A stretch of DNA of 64,000 nt from Cyanidioschyzon merolae (lineage: Eukaryota): the NCBI GenBank assembly GCA_000091205.1, contig AP006495.2; one strand, written 5' to 3'. A model generated the notes under the pieces. It was not told the DNA's origin. It did not search any database and worked only from the letters and a program-made list of their open reading frames with translations. A program made the translations under genes and the position numbers. Positions 1,343 to 53,957 of this stretch are shown one piece after another (position 1 is the first letter of the stretch; the number at the start of each line of letters is the position of its first letter).

Positions 1343-1834
1343 TCATGAAGAATCATCGCGCGTTTCGTTTTCTGGTGAAACGGTCGGCGGCAGGGCGCCA
1401 ACGTGGCCGTACGGCACCGGTGGCCAACGCGGCGGATCGTAGCCAGAGCCTCCAAGCGGGTTACAGCGTAGGATGCGCCACATCGCCAGCAAAATACCCC
1501 GCACAACACCAAACTCTTCTAATGACTGTACAGCGTAGTCACTACAGCTTGGTACGAAACGGCAAGCAGGTCCTAGGACAGGTGAAATACAGCGCTTGTA
1601 CAGCCGCAGACCGCCTACGAGTGTTTTGCGAACGGGCGCCAAGGCATCACGTTGCCGACTCGAGAGATTCACTCGTTGCTGAAAAGGTTGTTTTGCCCTT
1701 CGGAGAGCTGCAAACCGGTTATGACGCTCTATTTGCGTCGTAGCCCCAGGTGACAAAAACATGCTTCTCGAGAACAGCATGTCCAGACTAGATTCTAGAG
1801 GGTTACGGCTTCGCGTCCTCAAGGCGCAGTGCAT
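1343..1834 (-). CDS. YidD / membrane protein insertion efficiency factor homologue (UPF0161); bacterial-type, probably organelle-targeted
   Basis: The ORF 1343..1897 contains '[44 protein letters not shown]', which matches the YidD consensus C-F-PSCS-YA...G...G..L...RI-RC-P-GYDP. The start is uncertain; I placed it at the internal Met at 1834 because the first Met overlaps the tRNA at 1890. Confidence 0.55.
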
Positions 1835-1889
1835 CACACCACCATGAACCTCTTTATATTCTGAAATTGGCGCCTCTAGGCTACTCAAC

Positions 1890-1983
1890 GGCGGCATGGG
1901 CTATGGCGTTATTGGCGCTCGCTCCGGTGGTATGCTGTGGACTTTGGGTGTCTGCGACTCGGGTTCGATTCCCGATGCTGCCC
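1890..1983 (+). tRNA. tRNA-Pro (anticodon UGG) gene carrying a roughly 22-nt insertion (putative non-canonical intron) in the D-loop
   Basis: Acceptor GGCGGCA (1890-1896) pairs with TGCTGCC (1976-1982) using one G-U pair. U8-G9 follow, then D-stem GGCT/TGCT. The D-loop is 30 nt and ends in GGTGGTA. Anticodon stem TGGAC/GTCTG flanks the loop TTTGGGT (U33, anticodon TGG, G37). T-arm is TCGGG-TTCGATT-CCCGA. The discriminator C is followed by TTTT, a Pol III terminator. Total length is 94 nt against a canonical 72-73. Confidence 0.6.
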
Positions 1984-2717
1984 TTTTGATCTACCCTTAC
2001 TTGGACCACGCATCCGTCCTTGAGCACCCCACACCCCATATGTTTTTGGTGCAAGTTTTCTCGGTTTTATTCGAATACCCCCGGGAACGCGAGCAGTTCG
2101 CGGCGTGCAAGCACACCGGGGCTTCGCGGACGCCCTACCGTTGAACCGCAAGCCTGTCGCCAGTTCCGCAGTCGCAACCCGGCGCTCTGCAGCAAGTCGG
2201 GCGCGCTTCCGCTGCCTACGCGTCACGCAAGTCGGTGTAGTCTCTCCAGGTTCAGCGACGCGAGGCCTCCGGTCAAGGATGGATGCACGTACGTACGCAC
2301 GCTCGCACGTGCGCACGAAGCGAGAGAAAGGAAACGCGTACCAGCCGCGTTCGCTCGAAAGACTGCTCCAGTGCAAGTCCCTCGTAGACCTATAACCTGA
2401 AACTGGTGCGGCAACGAACTGCGAGCGCTCTCATAAAAGGCACGTGCAAAGCATTTACCAGATACATGGAGCGGCTCAGTGTGAGCCCAGGCGTGCCAAG
2501 GAAACCCCAAACCCACTAGAATCACGATGACTTGCGCAGTTGCCGAGCAAGATTTGTGCACTCGAACTTCATCCAGACGCTCGAGTAGTGCGCTCCAGAC
2601 ACCACTGCAAGAGTGCCAATAGGCACCGATGTTTGCGTCAGCACCGCTGTGTGCTCGCCTTCGAGGCTCAGTAGCAAGCATTCGCTGGGCGCGTTGCCAG
2701 TACCGCCCTGCTTGAGT

Positions 2718-5700
2718 CTATGAAAGCGCAGCGTTCGTGCTAGGCAACAAGCGCCCTACCTGCAACACCTCCGTGTTGTACGAACCGCACTGAGGGCATT
2801 TGTTATAAAGGAAATGGAACTCGACGAGACTGCGTGCGCTGCAATCATTACAGAAAATACGCGCTGGGATGCCGCGATACTCGGGTGGCATCGGCTCGTC
2901 ACGCAAGCGCGCCGCAAAGTACGCAGACATGTCTGCAAGCGACTTTTTGCAGAGCGGACATCGATAGTCCGCAGCAGCGTAGCGGCGATAGCAGCTTGCG
3001 TGCATCAGGTGCCCACAACGCAAAAACTTAATCGGATTCGTAGATGTAAAGAGGTACTCGCCGCACACGGGGCAGTCCGATTCGAGACTGTGCTCCATAC
3101 AGCGATGACTCTTCGCACTGGCCGTGGACATGCACGCATTGCACTTCATACAATGGAAATAGTCAATACCAAGACCTTTGCCGACGCGGCAGACATTACA
3201 GTAGCCACAATGATAGATATCCCGATTGGGCGCATCGTCGTAGAGCTTGCAAATGAGACAAACGTAGTGCGCGAAACGTTCCCCACAGGAACTGCATACC
3301 TCCGCAGGCGCCTGCTCCGTCAGGCACCGCATACAGAGAATTCGTTCCACTGCGTAGCGGTCCATGACGTGGTCATTCACTTCATCGTGACAAAGTCGAC
3401 ACGTGTAGTAGACCTGGCAGCAGGGCGCAAGCAGTCGACATGCCCGCGCATAGTGTCGACAACCGAGCTGGCCCGGCGAGGAGTCCGTCTTGCTACCCGG
3501 CCGGTACATGCGGCAGATGCCGCGGCCCTGTGGATCCGTTGACGCACGGGGACTGCTGTTGTTGTTGTTGTTGGTGGTGTTGGTGTTCTTGATCAGCGCT
3601 TCCGCATCACCCCAGGTGCAGCTACGTGCACTGGACGATGAGGATGCGGCATGTTCCGCAGGCGGCTGCAGCTTTCGACGACGCCACTGCGAGATCATGA
3701 CGTTCTGCATCAACATGGTGCGTTCTCGCTCGGACAGCGTCTCATCCCGGGCAATAGATCGAATCGCTCGCTCGACATCTCCCATGGCGCGGCGAATGTA
3801 GCCTTCAGCGGCAGCCTCGTATTTTGCGGAATCCATGTCGCGTCCATGCGCTGGGGTTGCAACAATACTCGCGTTCCCTCCCGGCCCCGTTGCATCAGCT
3901 TGCCGCGTCCCGCCGACAAGTTCATCGAAACCTTTGAACCACGTCCGCAACCACTGTGCGAACATGGTCGAGCGCGTAATTGTCAGAATATGCTGCATCA
4001 TGTTGGCGCTCTCGTGTCGACTGAGAACGCGCACCAGCCAGGGCAACAGCTCCTGCATCCGCGATGCCGGTATCTGGCCAAAAACCTGGCCAACAATCTG
4101 CGTCTGCTCATCTGCTGAGAACTTTTCCGCCAGAATTGGCCAAAGAACGACCTCCTCTCGTTCGAGATGATGCATGAGGTCAACCCGCAGCGCACGAACA
4201 ATGCCGCGCAGTTTCCGTATGAGCGAGCGTGTCTCCGCAGCAGTTCCGGCGCACTGAATATCCAACAGCGTTTGCAACAAGCGCCGAAAGAGCTCCTGTT
4301 CACAATGGTGGTCCGTTTCGTACTCCTCAACGATGCCGTGCACGCGCTCCGCGAGAGCGGGTAACACCACCCGATCCTCCGCATTGGAGTGATCTCTGAC
4401 CATGCGCTCGAGAAAGGCAAAACGCTCCCGCAGCGTCGTTAAATGTCGCGGATTCAGGGATTCTGGGTCTAGTTTGAGCGCCGCGTCCGCAAGTGCCTGC
4501 AGATCAACTCGAATCGCTTTGTGAACCCGCATGATCTCGGCAAGTGGTCCGGAATAGAGTCCACTCTCGGACTCTATTCCGGAGTGATTGCGTATCTCTG
4601 GAACACGGCGTGCAAGCTCGTACCAGTTTCTACCATCCAAAACACCCATGTGCACGGATTTCGCCACGGACTCGATGAGTCGTGCAAACTCCTGCCGAGA
4701 CATCGAGCGGAGAAGATTTCTAACCAAGGTCTCCTGTTCGGCGATCGAGAGTGACCCCAGGAGCCACGGCATCATGACGCGAAGGGCGTCTTCCGGGATT
4801 TTCCGTCGAACCTCGCGCACGAGACGATCCTGCTCGAGAACCGGGTAGTGTCCTTCCAGACGCGGCAGCAGGCGTGATTCCTCACTCGCCATATGTCGAA
4901 GTAGATGCCCACAGAGACTGCGAACGCGGGAGCGCAGTTTCGACATAAGCGGCGGACGCTGCTCCGCCGACGCAGCGCAGAGCTTCTCCACATCGCAGAG
5001 AAGCTCGTAGAATATGGAATCTTCTGTATGATGATCTCCGTGAATAAATTCAGCGAATTCTCGGTCTCCTTTGCGTAACTCTGGTAAAAAAACTGCGTCC
5101 TCACTCTGGGAATGTGCTGCATGCATCAGACGGAGAAAGCGCACCTGTTTGGCGAACGAACGAAGTTGCAACTCATCTGACGGGTCGACGTCGTCGATGG
5201 CCTGCTGCAAGTCTTCCAGCGCATGCCGAAACGCCATATGAATATGACGAATTTCCATCAGTGGTCGTAGTTGCGATTCCGCAGCCTCGGTGAGACCAGG
5301 AACGTGTTCGCTCAGCTCTTGAAACTCCTCCGGCGACATATCCTGGGCAACGTGGCCCGCTACGCTTGCAAACTGCTCAACAGATGCATACTGCTTCAGC
5401 AGCACGAGAAAGTAACTGCGCTCTGCCGTGGATGTAAGCTCCCGCAGTGATTTGAGCACCAATCGCGTCTGCGTCTCTTCAGGCATGGCAAAGATGATCT
5501 TGACCAGCAGCTGGCCCTGCTCGTCGGGCGTCAGGCATGAACTATCCCAGATATAGGGTGTCATTGCCTCTTCCTCTGCGTCGAGGTGGAGAAACACAGC
5601 GTCCCGAAGTTGTTCCCACTCGGCTCGCGACGGCCAAGTATCCGCGGCTTTCAAGTGTCGCTCGAGAGCCTCCATTTTTTCGTGTAACTCCATAAAAACT

Positions 5701-6074
5701 GCTGAATTGTGGCACGCTGCACCCTCGTTTTGCTCCAGGATGCGGCAACCCTTTCGAACGAGCACTGGAAGAAGTACGTCGTCTTCGGACGAGCAGTGGT
5801 GTCTCAGAATGTGACGCAGCGACTCGAGTTGCGCAGCAAGTTCCTCGCGTTCGTGCTCAATCACCGAACCGCCCGGTGGAACACTCTCGAGGAGTTCCAA
5901 AAGCTGCTCCAGGTCGTGCCGGATCGCTCGGTGAAAGTGAAACAAGTGCAGCAGTGGAGGCGCCTTGAATTGGGCACTACCGTTTTGACGGCTGCGTTTC
6001 GGTGGCAAGCCGTCACCCGAAGACCCGCCAGCTGCAACTTTTGCGTCTGAATGTGGCCTCCGTTTCGAGGGCAT
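2718..6074 (-). CDS. Hemerythrin-domain / CHY zinc-finger / RING-H2 E3 ubiquitin ligase (BRUTUS/HRZ-like iron-sensing architecture), 1118 aa
   Basis: The N-terminal and middle regions contain repeated hemerythrin-type His/Glu motifs (HxxxE, for example 'HFHRAIRHDLEQL' and 'HIHMAFRHALEDL'). The C-terminus carries a Cys/His-rich CHY and CTCHY zinc finger, a RING-H2 ('CPVCGEYLFTSTNPIKFLRCGHLMHASCYRRY...CPLC') and a zinc ribbon. The ORF is uninterrupted. Confidence 0.8.
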   Translation of the reverse strand: MPSKRRPHSDAKVAAGGSSGDGLPPKRSRQNGSAQFKAPPLLHLFHFHRAIRHDLEQLLELLESVPPGGSVIEHEREELAAQLESLRHILRHHCSSEDDVLLPVLVRKGCRILEQNEGAACHNSAVFMELHEKMEALERHLKAADTWPSRAEWEQLRDAVFLHLDAEEEAMTPYIWDSSCLTPDEQGQLLVKIIFAMPEETQTRLVLKSLRELTSTAERSYFLVLLKQYASVEQFASVAGHVAQDMSPEEFQELSEHVPGLTEAAESQLRPLMEIRHIHMAFRHALEDLQQAIDDVDPSDELQLRSFAKQVRFLRLMHAAHSQSEDAVFLPELRKGDREFAEFIHGDHHTEDSIFYELLCDVEKLCAASAEQRPPLMSKLRSRVRSLCGHLLRHMASEESRLLPRLEGHYPVLEQDRLVREVRRKIPEDALRVMMPWLLGSLSIAEQETLVRNLLRSMSRQEFARLIESVAKSVHMGVLDGRNWYELARRVPEIRNHSGIESESGLYSGPLAEIMRVHKAIRVDLQALADAALKLDPESLNPRHLTTLRERFAFLERMVRDHSNAEDRVVLPALAERVHGIVEEYETDHHCEQELFRRLLQTLLDIQCAGTAAETRSLIRKLRGIVRALRVDLMHHLEREEVVLWPILAEKFSADEQTQIVGQVFGQIPASRMQELLPWLVRVLSRHESANMMQHILTITRSTMFAQWLRTWFKGFDELVGGTRQADATGPGGNASIVATPAHGRDMDSAKYEAAAEGYIRRAMGDVERAIRSIARDETLSERERTMLMQNVMISQWRRRKLQPPAEHAASSSSSARSCTWGDAEALIKNTNTTNNNNNSSPRASTDPQGRGICRMYRPGSKTDSSPGQLGCRHYARACRLLAPCCQVYYTCRLCHDEVNDHVMDRYAVERILCMRCLTEQAPAEVCSSCGERFAHYVCLICKLYDDAPNRDIYHCGYCNVCRVGKGLGIDYFHCMKCNACMSTASAKSHRCMEHSLESDCPVCGEYLFTSTNPIKFLRCGHLMHASCYRRYAAADYRCPLCKKSLADMSAYFAARLRDEPMPPEYRGIPARIFCNDCSARSLVEFHFLYNKCPQCGSYNTEVLQVGRLLPSTNAALS
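3556..3588. repeat. (GTT)n/(TTG)n trinucleotide repeat inside the coding sequence (encodes a poly-Asn/Thr tract of the E3 ligase on the minus strand)
   Basis: The repeat is visible as 'ctgttgttgttgttgttggtggtgttggtgtt'. Confidence 0.9.
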
Positions 6075-9000: not shown

Positions 9001-10765
9001 GAAAATTGGAACGAGCGCAAAGTCGTGTCGTTTGCCACTGATGGTAACCTATCCCAGTGGACGTGCTGAGGTGCGCGAATGCTGCACGCCGCTTCCTTCG
9101 ACGAGGGCGTACATGGAATGCAGGCATCGATCCTGCACGAATACCGTCGATTAGGTCAGGTCGAAATGAACGAATCACGAGCATGTGCGCATGCTGAAAC
9201 CAGCAGAGAAGAGGAGCGTGAAACACAGACCAGAGCATGAGATGGTATACGGCACCCAGACGGAACGTAAGATGATGAAGTAATCGAATGGAAGAGGCTT
9301 GCAGTAGTATGATCCCAATGGCTCATATGCCAGCAGGCGCTGTCGGCTTCGACATTTGAACGCCTCGATCAACATCCGGATATGTGTACTGGTTCTGGCC
9401 CGTCCACTGACTCTGTGTCAAATGAAGTGTCGATGTGATACTTTCGTATCCTGAATGGGCATTGTGCTGAAACGCATAAGACGTGCGATGAAATCAAGAC
9501 TAGGAGAGAGGGGCATCGGATTCTCGCCCCAACCAAAGCCGCTGGAATGGTGCAGTTCTGGAATCCAACGAGCCTGAAGCGTCGCATATGTGCACCGGCA
9601 ACTGTTGTCTTCGGTTCTGGTGAACAATAATGGTGTTGGGGTATTTGCTATCATTGAGTACACTGCCGAAATTGGTGTACAATGGTTGCAAACCAAGTTC
9701 ATGAACACTTGTAGATGCGTTTTAGTCGGTTGGCGGGCGTCAAATCATCGAGCTCAAGTCGATTTGCCAGTGACCGGAATAGACCGCGCCCGTACCCCGA
9801 CCCGGTGCAGAGCGTATGAACTTAGGTAGCCGCAACCGCAGCTGCACCTACCCCAGTCGCGGAGCGCTGTCGGAGACGTTTAGAGCACAGACGCTATCAA
9901 GCTTGCAGCCACATTCAGTACAAGAAGCGCGCCGCTTGTCGACACCGGGCCCACGTTCGACTGCGGCATATGCAATACAAGTTGTACTTCACGCTGATCG
10001 CACGCCCAACCGGGGGGAACTGTGGCGCCTCACGACCAGTGACGCACACCAGGATATCGAGAGGTGTACGTGTGTAGCCTCTTCTCTGGTCTATGCGGTA
10101 ACGCGGGACTATATATGGATATTGCGCCAGCGGCTTTGAGTTGCATTGCGGCATGGAATGCAGTGCGCGTTGGTGTCACCCCATGCTCACGGTAAGCCTG
10201 GAGCAGAGAGCACTCGGCTTGTAACCTCTGCAACACGAAACACTGTTTCTTCGATGGTCCTACGCGAATCCGAGCAACGCCCTGGTTCGCTTTCTGAACG
10301 CCAGCTGTGGCTCGCTGTCGCGGTTGTACCGCGGTCGGAGCGTATCCGTTTACGCATGAGCGCATGAGCCTGCGCATGCAGCGTTCTGCTCGGCCAGCAG
10401 TTCCATATGCAATTCCAAAGCGCATCCTTTTTGTATTTGCCGGGCGCATGGCATGCCTTTCGGCCGGTGTGGCACGGACGTGGTGAGCTCCCGGGTAGGA
10501 CGCATCAAACCTGCGAAATGACAACGTATTTGCATCTTTCTATGCAAGCGCACCTCATCCGGCACGACCGCCGCAGCACCTGCCACGGATCATGGCAACT
10601 TGTCCGGTGTACTGCAATCTCTATTCAACTGGCATTCGGCGGCTTCAACGGTAACGCATGTGAAGCATGCCCAACTATCTGCCGCATCACACCTTTGAGG
10701 CAAGACCGTTGTCGCGTTTTATCACCGATACCACGCATGCAAAGCGTATAAGGTCCGGTGTGTGC

Positions 10766-50779: not shown

Positions 50780-53364
50780 ACATGGAGCTTACATCATGTC
50801 CCGCCAGTTCCATTCTTCTGTGTCAGAATTGCTAGGGCACGACGGGTACGATCCAAAGAGGGTGCGTCCCAGGAAGCGCTCGGCATTGACCCGCGGGAGG
50901 TATTTGAGGTTGTTTTCAATTTATCATTGACGCTCGCGGCTTACATTTGGTGATCGCTGACGTTGCTCGGCGTTGTGCCAAACTATACAGGGAAGCCTGT
51001 ATAAAGATTTCGGATCAAAAGATCAGTCCGTCAGACGTCTTCTATCCCGATCATCTGTTGTCCTGCGTTGCGAAGGTGAGATCGAAAGATATCCAGAGAA
51101 ATATGGATAGATGGCAGCGCTGCGTCCGGATTTCATGCGATCAGTTGCTTGACGATGTGGGCCAAAGCGAGAGAAGCAGGCGAGCGTTCCTCAAATGAGA
51201 AGCCACGCGATCTTTCCTAGCGTCCATCAGCTCGCGTAAGAAAGGTGAACCCGCAGATGCGTTTTCGTAGGGAGGCCATGCCAACGGTTTCAGGTTGATC
51301 TCTCAGCCCCGATAGGTTTTCTTTCTGGTTCCTCGTCGTCCTGCGTTCTGTACAAAGTTGCTGCTTTTGCCCCATGAGTCCTGCACCTTCTACTTCTCCG
51401 CGTTCGCCCATACTTGGTGGAGAATCATGAACGTATACCCATACTCCATAACCGTTCGTTTTTCTTGGGATTCTGATGCGCCGTAAGGGCGGAATCATTG
51501 AAGCGCCACTGCTCTATTGATGTATTTACGGTCCCGTAACTACTTTTTCGTGATCCCCGTTCCGACCGTGTCCATAAACCGCAGCGCGCTTGTCCTCTGC
51601 CTCGCGCATACGACGAGCAACACTGCAGATCCGGGCTGGTCAGGGCAGGGAACAACTCGACCAAGAAGGATGCCATGGATGTGTTCGAGTCGTCCGTTGA
51701 TCCGTAAGCGTCGAAACGGTCTCTGACAACAGAGAAGACGCCTGCGACTCGATTCAACCCAGGAGCATACACTGGCACCGAGAGCACTTCAACTCGAACC
51801 GCAACTGCATGCACCGTTCCCGCTTGTGTGAGTGATAGAAAGCGGCGTTATGTAAGAGCAGGCGAGAGGCGTATGGAAGGAAAAGTCCTGAAGTGCTTCG
51901 ACGAAGCGTGAGGTGATGAACGATCTTACCCGATTGGCGATTTGGCGGCAACTATACGATAGCTACGACGCTATGACTGTTTTTTTAGTTACGGTCGCTC
52001 GTTTCACCTCTGCAAACAGCGGTTTGTTCCTTGTTGAGAACACGTGCACAAGTCTGCGATTTCCCTGGGACGAGGTCCCTTCGAGTGAGACGGAGAACCG
52101 TCTCAGATATAGGAAGCATTCGCGTTTCTGTACGAAATCGATGGCGTGCTTTTCAGCACGGGACCGTCCCGTACGGAAGCACGCTCTTTCATCATGTCCA
52201 TGTGTTTCTCTCGATAAGCATTGGTATCAGCGGTGTGGAAACTCCACACGCTTTGGCTTCTTTGGAAGAAGTTCGTTGAGAATGTTTGGAGTGAATTGGG
52301 TTGACGAGGAGACAGGCGCGAAAATAGAGTTTCATAGGTTCTGTGTTTTGGGTACACGACGCGTAGGATAGAGGACTACCAGGAAGGTGGTTCCTCCACC
52401 TGCTCATCGTTCAATGAAAGACTCGCACATGTAAGACCTTTTTTCGCAATCTAGCAGTCGCAGCATCAATTAGCTCCAAGACCTTCCTCCGATCTACACG
52501 ATGCATTGTTTTTGTGAAACATGCTCGGGTGATACAGAAACATACACAAAATGGACGTCATTGTATATGCGTCCCCGAAGGCACTGCTCGATTCGGAGCA
52601 TACCAGAAGCGTGTCGTTCTACCAGAATCGACTCGGCCATATGGAGGTTTCCTCTGAACACTCCATATATTACAGCATTGGCCTTGGATCAATACAGTCG
52701 ATGCTGCGGCTAGCGCGCATACACGCTGCAACCTTCGCTCGCGAACAGCGTTGCGACCGATCCACCGTCGGTATCATCGCATGCACGCAAACCGATTGGC
52801 TTTGAATGGAATACACTACGAGAGACTGAACTGACTCGCCTGGATGTGCAAACGCTTCTGGTTAGCGGCGCTCCGACTTGCCCAGGAATGTGTGGTCTTA
52901 TCGAAACTTTGTCGCCTGAGAGCACTGCAGGACCCGGAGAAAGCGCTTCAATCGATTCAATTTTTTATTCATTGACAGAACGTTTCCTTAGGCCAGCGTT
53001 CTCCGATTATGCGCATTTTTCTTCTCTTACTTTTTTTGTGTTTTTTCAGTGCGAGGTGTGGTATCCATCAGCTCCCTACCTCCATGTTACATTACCTATA
53101 CTTCTTCTCGGATATTCTGGTCGTTTCATACGTCCTATCGAGTGTGTGCCTAGTGCCTGCCGAAAGCGACCGCACCGGCGCCTAAAGCGCCGGTGCGTCA
53201 ATCGATGCAATACTGGCATTCGCGCCCTGGCCCCGATCGATGACCCGAAGATCCGCCGCCCGCGACATCCGGACGCACCCGCTATCGGTGCGCGCATGCA
53301 TCATCGGCGCATATCGAGACGTGAACCCTATATATATCAATTCTAGTGCCTAACTGAACGAAAC

Positions 53365-53465
53365 GGGGTGCTGGTCTATCGTTACAGGGGATCTGGTGGT
53401 ATGATTTGCCGTTAGGGAATTCTCCAACATCGGCAAGGTCCCGGGTTCAATTCCCGGGCACCCCC
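53365..53465 (+). tRNA. tRNA-Pro (anticodon AGG) gene with two insertions: about 17 nt in the D-loop and a canonical 12-nt intron between positions 37 and 38
   Basis: Acceptor GGGGTGC (53365-71) pairs perfectly with GCACCCC (53458-64). U8-G9 follow, then D-stem GTCT/TGAT. The D-loop is 24 nt and ends in GGTGGTA. Anticodon stem TGCCG/CGGCA flanks the loop TT-AGG-G, then the intron AATTCTCCAACA, then T38. Variable loop is AGGTC. T-arm is CCGGG-TTCAATT-CCCGG. The discriminator C is followed by A then TTTTT, a Pol III terminator. Apart from the insertions it is strongly similar to metazoan tRNA-Pro. Confidence 0.6.
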
Positions 53466-53957
53466 ATTTTTGCCCGTCTTGAACAAGTCGGTCTTAATAT
53501 CGATACGCGACCTCCTTGAGCTTGTCCCGAAGCGTGCGTCTGAGAACCGTGCTTCTGCTGCTGCACGAGTGCTGCGCACAACGGAGCTGTGCATCTGGGC
53601 TGCTGCTGTGCGCGTGCATCGCTCCTGAAAAGCTGCTTGACTGGGCGCCTTGAACAGGCGACTCTAGACTCGCGGGTCAGCGCGAAGCCGGAGGACCAAG
53701 GAATCTGGTGCGGGACGCGCCGCTGCTGGAAAGCGACGCTGCAGTCCTGCGCCGAACGCGTGCGGAACACTGGTCGTTGTTCACGTGGTCGTCCCGTCGC
53801 GAGGAGCGCGCGCTGAAGTTTGATTTGACGCCACCGCACGGCAAACGCCGTTTCGGCTCGACCTAGCTTAGATCGTAGACGGGGCAGCGCCGGCATTGAG
53901 CCCCCGGAACTGACGCAAGGTGCAAAGAACCGAGTCGTCCGAGTTGACGTCAGTCCA

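Follow-up and report, generated by a model that had tools for sequence, protein, structure and literature searches.

Positions 1890–1983 (plus strand) of the 64-kb stretch of DNA analysed here (the window) very probably constitute a functional nuclear tRNA-Pro(UGG) gene of Cyanidioschyzon merolae 10D, split between tRNA positions 14 and 15 by a 23-nt, protein-spliced intron of the bulge-helix-bulge (BHB) type. The insert is a real ectopic tRNA intron, of a kind already published; transcription of the gene and removal of the intron in vivo we infer from the exon versus intron conservation described below and from RT-PCR of other genes. The open reading frames at 1343–1897 and 2718–6074 (both minus strand) exactly match BAM81000.1 and BAM81001.1 of strain 10D, and the window has a G+C content of 53–56% throughout and long, intron-less open reading frames. 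The gene, its signals and the elements of its predicted junction fold are as follows.

1852–1865, plus strand: TATA-like promoter block CTTTATATTCTGAA, with the TATA core TTTATATT at 1853–1860 (−37 to −30 from the mature 5′ end).
1890–1903, plus strand: exon 1 (acceptor 5′ strand, T8, G9, D-stem GGCT, A14).
1904–1926, plus strand: ectopic D-loop intron TGGCGTTATTGGCGCTCGCTCCG, 23 nt, between tRNA positions 14 and 15, a diverged insert.
1927–1983, plus strand: exon 2 (GTGGTA, D-stem 3′ strand, anticodon arm, variable loop, T arm with a B-box match, acceptor 3′ strand, C1983).
1984–1987, plus strand: T4 stretch, putative RNA polymerase III (Pol III) terminator.
1898–1901, plus strand: helix H, 5′ strand (G9 G10 G11 C12), followed by the 5′ splice bulge T13 A14/T1904.
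1921–1924, plus strand: helix H, 3′ strand (GCTC), followed by the 3′ splice bulge C1925 G1926/G1927.
1905–1919, plus strand: intron hairpin h′ (1905–1910 with 1914–1919) of the minimum-energy fold.

A parse by hand shows the acceptor, anticodon and T arms to be intact and the D-loop to be enlarged. The acceptor stem (GGCGGCA, 1890–1896, with TGCTGCC, 1976–1982) has 7 bp including one G·T pair, and T8 and G9 lead into the D-stem (GGCT, 1899–1902, with TGCT, 1933–1936), the strands of which lie 30 nt apart (1903–1932) rather than the usual 7–8. The anticodon arm (1938–1954; TGGAC/TTTGGGT/GTCTG) presents T33, the anticodon TGG at 1945–1947 and G37, and is separated by the variable loop CGAC from a perfect T arm (1959–1975; TCGGG/TTCGATT/CCCGA) containing the B box at 1962–1972. 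The discriminator is C1983, with TTTT directly 3′ to it. The hallmarks of a tRNA-Pro are therefore all found here: an NGG anticodon, U33 and G37 in the loop TTTGGGT (1943–1949), a 7-bp acceptor and the T-loop TTCGATT with its B box. This parse bears out the complete cloverleaf, T4 stretch and 30-nt D-loop described in the first-pass annotation.

Standard tools overlook the gene: default ARAGORN reported 0 tRNAs in the whole 64-kb window, and Rfam had no match at its gathering score. In E-value mode, the Rfam tRNA model scored 24.7 bits (cut-off 29) in a misalignment to 1926–1983 that misused GGTGGTA as an acceptor strand; over the whole window, this mode returned no tRNA-like match. With introns allowed, ARAGORN placed a tRNA-Pro(tgg) precisely at [1890,1983] and recovered a second gene at [53365,53465], with the introns wrongly located and the second gene mislabelled as Trp. 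Once 1904–1926 was removed in silico, default ARAGORN called a 71-nt tRNA-Pro(tgg), and the second gene without both of its introns was called as a 72-nt tRNA-Pro(agg). Nearly any deletion of at least 16 nt in the D region yielded a tRNA-Pro in a deletion scan, so that the position of the intron cannot be read from ARAGORN. Two matches to the B-box pattern GGTTCRANTCC are present in the 64 kb, only at these two Pro loci, with 0.18 expected; judged by this count and by exons that are 100% identical in another genus (see below), the tRNA-Pro(UGG) locus is beyond chance. An ectopic tRNA intron that default ARAGORN and Rfam both miss was recognised here from raw sequence alone, and the result is chiefly of value as a check; through the same blind spot, no more than 30 tRNA genes were listed when C. 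merolae was first annotated.

The second gene is a tRNA-Pro(AGG), which lies on the same strand 51 kb away and has two introns.

53329–53342, plus strand: TATA-like block TATATATATCAATT upstream of tRNA-Pro(AGG), about −36 to −23, conserved in both orthologs (L086, L087).
53365–53465, plus strand: tRNA-Pro(AGG), companion gene, its exons identical in two Cyanidiococcus-like genomes.
53365–53378, 53396–53417 and 53430–53465, plus strand: exons 1, 2 and 3 of tRNA-Pro(AGG).
53379–53395, plus strand: D-loop intron of tRNA-Pro(AGG), 17 nt, position 14/15.
53418–53429, plus strand: canonical 37/38 intron of tRNA-Pro(AGG), 12 nt.
53467–53471, plus strand: T5 stretch of tRNA-Pro(AGG).

In both genes the split falls between A14 and G15, so that the first-pass annotation was right to place the two insertions at the same position; it had also called the two inserts unrelated, which is true at the level of sequence, where they have only structurally constrained positions in common. 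The pentamer CGTTA, present in both C. merolae introns, is probably a chance match: the orthologs do not have it, and by a rough hand estimate about one in four pairs of sequences of these lengths would share some 5-mer. The C73 discriminator and the D-arm of the AGG gene (GGTCTAGTGGTATGAT) presumably resemble those of yeast and human tRNA-Pro. In a Cyanidiococcus-like relative, the Pro pair again occupies one strand of one contig (Ga0531430_00185; L081 and L087), about 35 kb apart, a linkage that is notable given only 43 tRNA genes in 16.5 Mb. As for the canonical intron of the AGG gene, it ends CCAACA/T in all three genomes (53396–53430 of the window and its equivalents in L086 and L087), and in its central helix TTAG/CCAA a single mismatch sets A34 against C; speculatively, were A34 converted to inosine before splicing, an I34–C pair would complete the 4-bp helix.

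Relatives of the locus were sought through its neighbours. Besides 76 bacterial YidD loci, a metagenome scan with the YidD-like protein encoded next to the tRNA gene recovered four nearly identical strains of C. merolae. Gene and insert are unchanged in two of the C. merolae contigs, L003 and L004, which were assembled independently; the intron being identical among strains, they are uninformative about exon versus intron divergence. One of them (L004, Ga0080006_1187790) reads GGA for GGG in the T-stem of the UGG gene (alignment column 128), which would break the universally conserved G53–C61 pair; a rare variant or a misread base may explain it. More distant relatives were reached via homologues of the neighbouring zinc-finger protein, 73% identical in one case (P0026) and 58% identical in Cyanidium caldarium. 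The 73% relative (L081–L084), which is Cyanidiococcus-like, keeps the order zinc-finger gene, tRNA, YidD, and its UGG ortholog lies at 10100–10192 of L081, minus strand. In Cy. caldarium (L085, JANCYW010000007.1), synteny is broken and no tRNA was found beside the zinc-finger gene; this gene is directly followed by an F-box kinase gene, in an interval without YidD and tRNA-Pro(UGG) genes, and the latter must therefore sit elsewhere in that genome. AGG orthologs were reached via the Tfb2 gene adjoining the AGG locus, at 3266–3368 of L086 (Cyanidiococcus yangmingshanensis) and 3290–3391 of L087 (on the JGI contig that also holds L081).

Conservation separates the exons sharply from the insert. 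Exons 1 and 2 of the UGG gene are identical to those of the ortholog (14/14 and 57/57 nt), whereas the insert matches at 15/23 positions with a 1-nt indel, and the flanks are 60% (5′) and 53% (3′) identical. Similarly, all three AGG exons are identical across the three genomes, while the AGG inserts vary in both sequence and length (17, 19 and 19 nt for the D-loop insert; 12, 12 and 11 nt for the 37/38 insert). At the 5′ boundary, the first variable base follows A14 (C in L087, T in the others); at the 3′ boundary, the last variable base precedes GTGGTA (T in the AGG ortholog of L086, G in the others). These limits define the UGG intron as 1904–1926 (23 nt), between positions 14 and 15, and leave GTGGTA as the conserved start of the 3′ exon and AGTGGTA (7 nt) as the mature D-loop. 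The T that L086 has in place of G before GTGGTA rules out an insert of 22 nt that would leave 8 nt, AGGTGGTA, as the D-loop. The insertion of about 22 nt ahead of GGTGGTA that had been proposed thus stands as an insertion, but its size and boundary were one base off. The conservation boundaries match the cleavage sites predicted for a BHB motif to the base; with exons invariant and the insert diverged, the earlier view of the insert as a real ectopic intron and the gene as no pseudogene has held up.

The YidD-like gene deserves mention here as a neighbour that annotation brings into contact with the tRNA gene.

1343–1897, minus strand: YidD-like CDS (BAM81000.1), the first 8 bases of which overlap the tRNA gene; a neighbour, not part of it.

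The head-to-head arrangement noted in the first pass follows the annotation, but the overlap itself probably reflects an over-extended CDS annotation. The annotated ATG at 1897 is tRNA positions 6–8 seen from the opposite strand, and the initial 'MPP' is a backward reading of the acceptor stem. Codons 1–21 (1835–1897, minus strand), which also span the TATA block of the tRNA gene, are the only part of the protein that varies among strains; other gene calls begin at M22 or M46, and in the relative the YidD open reading frame starts 243 nt from the tRNA. On the other side, the product of 2718–6074 (minus strand) is 1118 aa long and combines hemerythrin, CHY zinc-finger and RING domains in a way that we take to resemble BRUTUS-like iron-sensing E3 ligases; its label in metagenome pipelines, 'iron-sulfur cluster repair protein YtfE (RIC family)', suits the hemerythrin part only.

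Canonical 37/38 introns are cut within 3-nt bulges, on the 3′ side of the middle base, and their base −3 pairs with the exon base located 5 nt ahead of the 5′ cut. Likewise, positions 9–12 pair at 4/4 positions with intron bases −6 to −3 in each of the five distinct Pro D-loop intron sequences, forming helix H (strands given 5′ to 3′).

C. merolae UGG: GGGC (positions 9–12) and GCTC (intron −6 to −3).
Relative UGG: GGGC and GCCC.
C. merolae AGG: GGTC and GATC.
L086 AGG: GGTC and GACT.
L087 AGG: GGTC and GATC.

The substitutions in helix H all keep pairing, with G·T and G–C interchanged three times; in the UGG ortholog, GCCC at the equivalent of 1921–1924 turns a G·T pair into G–C. In the AGG genes, T replaces G at position 11; opposite it the intron has A in place of T or C, and position 24, with which it pairs in the D-stem, is likewise A rather than C. 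Both splice sites then lie in 3-nt bulges, T13 A14/N and N N/G15. The hairpin that follows in the intron occurs at the same place in the UGG ortholog with a different sequence (GACGG/CCGUU). In strict register, h′ has 2 bp in the UGG gene and 1–4 bp across the sequences, and a better UGG hairpin of 4–6 bp leaves one unpaired C between h′ and H. The outer helix h has 0 bp in all five sequences, which thus fall short of the strict archaeal hBHBh′ motif with at least 2 bp in both h and h′. As predicted from sequence and folding, the UGG junction is a relaxed BHB motif of HBh′-like form. Consistent with this, the unconstrained minimum-energy folds of both UGG precursors (−35.4 kcal/mol in C. merolae and −37.9 kcal/mol in the relative) contain H, a 3-nt bulge and the intron hairpin, together with the acceptor stacked on H and the anticodon and T arms; the minimum-energy folds of the AGG precursors are not all of this type.

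Such geometry can arise by chance. A full H formed at the fixed site in 4–8% of trials with shuffled introns, and a brute-force BHB scan listed 33–34 candidates with a full H per locus (33 at UGG), several of which outscored the true site yet gave nonsense tRNAs; the scan rule of at least 2 bp in h and h′ even filtered out the true AGG site. The structural case therefore rests on conservation, that is, on the coincidence of boundaries with predicted cuts and on the pair-preserving substitutions, and not on the motif by itself.

These data also bear on whether the insert might be retained, to give a mature tRNA with an enlarged 30-nt D-loop or an extra hairpin. That the insert is predicted to fold into a small hairpin would suit such a molecule, but we consider this very unlikely. 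Sequence and length of the insert drift between genera while every exon base is fixed, which places the insert outside the selected mature molecule. The D-stem strand sequestered in the precursor fold would, moreover, prevent formation of the D-arm and the contacts of G18/G19 with the T-loop, and other C. merolae D-arm introns are removed according to RT-PCR data of Soma et al. (2013; Sci Rep 3:2321, PMC3728597). Splicing of the 23-nt intron thus remains the preferred reading.

Signals expected of an expressed gene surround both Pro loci, each of which has a TATA-like box near −30. The ortholog preserves the block upstream of the UGG gene, CTTTATAT[T/A]CTGAA (about −38 to −25), in a 5′ flank that is otherwise only about 60% alike. 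At least four Ts occur within 3 nt of the discriminator in all six genes compared. The A-box-like TGGGCTA/GTGG of the UGG gene is cut by the intron after A14. Between TATA block and mature 5′ end (1866–1889 and 53343–53364), the two C. merolae Pro genes both have TCTAG...CT[C/G]AAC, which their orthologs do not have and which is probably a chance or lineage-specific likeness.

A decaying tRNA pseudogene hit by an insertion might look much like this locus to default tRNA finders and to Rfam, which reject it, but conservation makes decay most improbable, with exons identical at 71/71 positions across genera against 53–60% for the flanks, promoter block and terminator conserved, and the same architecture in a second Pro isoacceptor. 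In addition, the minimal set of 43 genes, essentially one per anticodon (Soma et al. 2013), makes this gene most likely the sole decoder of its kind. We found nothing in favour of an assembly or sequencing artefact, which is hardly conceivable given the identical insert in L003 and L004 and a diverged insert at the same site in four further assemblies (six independent assemblies in total); the first-pass annotation had already argued against it. We give equally little credence to a self-splicing intron of group I or II, or to the footprint of a mobile element, since, although group I introns are possible in organellar and bacterial tRNA genes, 17–23 nt is far too short for a ribozyme, the geometry fits a protein endonuclease, Rfam had no match, and neither target-site duplication nor terminal repeats are visible in the sequence.

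We therefore return to a spliced tRNA intron and propose the following course of events. Pol III would start at the upstream TATA-like element near −35 and stop at T4, the internal A box being split by the intron and C. merolae having no recognisable TFIIIC. The precursor would form its acceptor, anticodon and T arms, and G9–C12 would pair with intron bases −6 to −3 (GCUC) instead of with the D-stem, so placing U13 A14/U and C G/G15 in two 3-nt bulges, 4 bp apart, beside the intron hairpin. This predicted folding step is supported by sequence, energy and covariation. Because helix H takes the 5′ strand of the D-stem, the D-arm of the precursor could not be folded. The tRNA-splicing endonuclease would cut both bulges and a ligase would join the exons, as suggested by the literature on other C. 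merolae tRNAs; catalysis would fall to Sen2/Sen34, and the Sen54 'ruler' may go unused because the D-arm is unformed. Only after splicing could the D-stem pair (G10·U25, G11–C24, C12–G23), and the product would be a 71-nt tRNA with the D-loop AGUGGUA, its ends then trimmed and CCA added.

The comparison between genera tempts one to go further, and we tentatively suggest, as a possibility that the present evidence leaves short of even probability, that the 14/15 intron is old and fixed in position, present in both Pro isoacceptors since before the split of Cyanidioschyzon and Cyanidiococcus, with selection acting on the fold that sequesters the D-stem and splicing obligatory for folding of the D-arm. 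The present data would be a first small example of compensatory evolution of such introns across genera, and intron gain and loss would become datable across Cyanidiophyceae. The phenomenon itself is already known for the C. merolae genome, and the only increment here is the cross-genus comparison, in which intron position, 4-bp helix and splice bulges are conserved between genera and intron sequence is not; as far as we searched the literature, we found no description of cross-genus compensatory evolution of ectopic eukaryotic tRNA introns. Two wider points, that the eukaryotic tRNA-splicing endonuclease can act on a precursor with an unfolded D-arm and that Pol III works without an intact A box, were likewise already made by Soma et al. 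(2013).

According to that study (PMC3728597), 27 of the 43 nuclear tRNA genes of C. merolae 10D have ectopic or multiple introns, so that the systematic, genome-wide feature suspected at first sight is well founded. The introns number 42 in total, are 11–69 nt long and lie at 37/38 (17), in the D-loop (14), in the D-stem (5) or at other sites in the variable region or T arm, with strict or relaxed BHB motifs (hBH/HBh′) at their junctions; they were described there as dissimilar in sequence to the introns of Archaea. The genes have T-stretches and, upstream, TATA-like elements, the latter proposed to be TFIIIC-independent Pol III promoters. The splicing experiments, by RT-PCR, covered Asn, Phe, Ile and Gly(CCC) and showed ordered splicing; Pro was not among them and is not mentioned in the text of the paper. 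With the 43 genes described as a sufficient anticodon repertoire in which Gly(CCC) alone is duplicated, 1890–1983 would be the Pro(UGG) gene of that set. PlantRNA 2.0 and later reviews carry annotations of the non-canonical introns of C. merolae.

How, then, does the UGG gene compare with known systems? It shares with the ectopic-intron genes of Soma et al. (2013) the organism, a short D-loop intron at a site other than 37/38 whose removal leaves a standard cloverleaf, a relaxed BHB motif, a TATA-like element and a T-stretch, and it shows no difference in kind from them. The Archaea (Crenarchaeota/Thermoproteales, with a BHB-recognising EndA) offer the likeness of a D-arm that is one among many intron sites, of two 3-nt bulges 4 bp apart and of several introns per gene, with three in tRNA-Pro(UGG) of Pyrobaculum islandicum; in contrast, the C. 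merolae gene is eukaryotic and nuclear, with a Pol III-type T-stretch terminator, unencoded CCA and a Sen-type endonuclease. Within the red lineage, Chondrus crispus (D-loop and T-loop introns; PlantRNA 2.0) and the Guillardia theta nucleomorph also have non-canonical introns with an insertion point common to several genes, and in C. crispus splicing has been validated by RT-PCR. However, the D-loop introns of C. crispus lie at 20/21 rather than at 14/15 as in the C. merolae Pro genes, and most introns of G. theta form no BHB. Finally, canonical 37/38 introns, of which the companion AGG gene has one, share the enzyme family and the geometry rule, but they are recognised by their distance from a mature domain that is already folded (D-arm plus acceptor, measured through Sen54), whereas the D-arm of the UGG precursor would be unfoldable before cleavage. 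This agrees with the suggestion of Soma et al. (2013) that cleavage of D-arm introns falls to a Sen2/Sen34 form of the enzyme, independent of measuring by Sen54.
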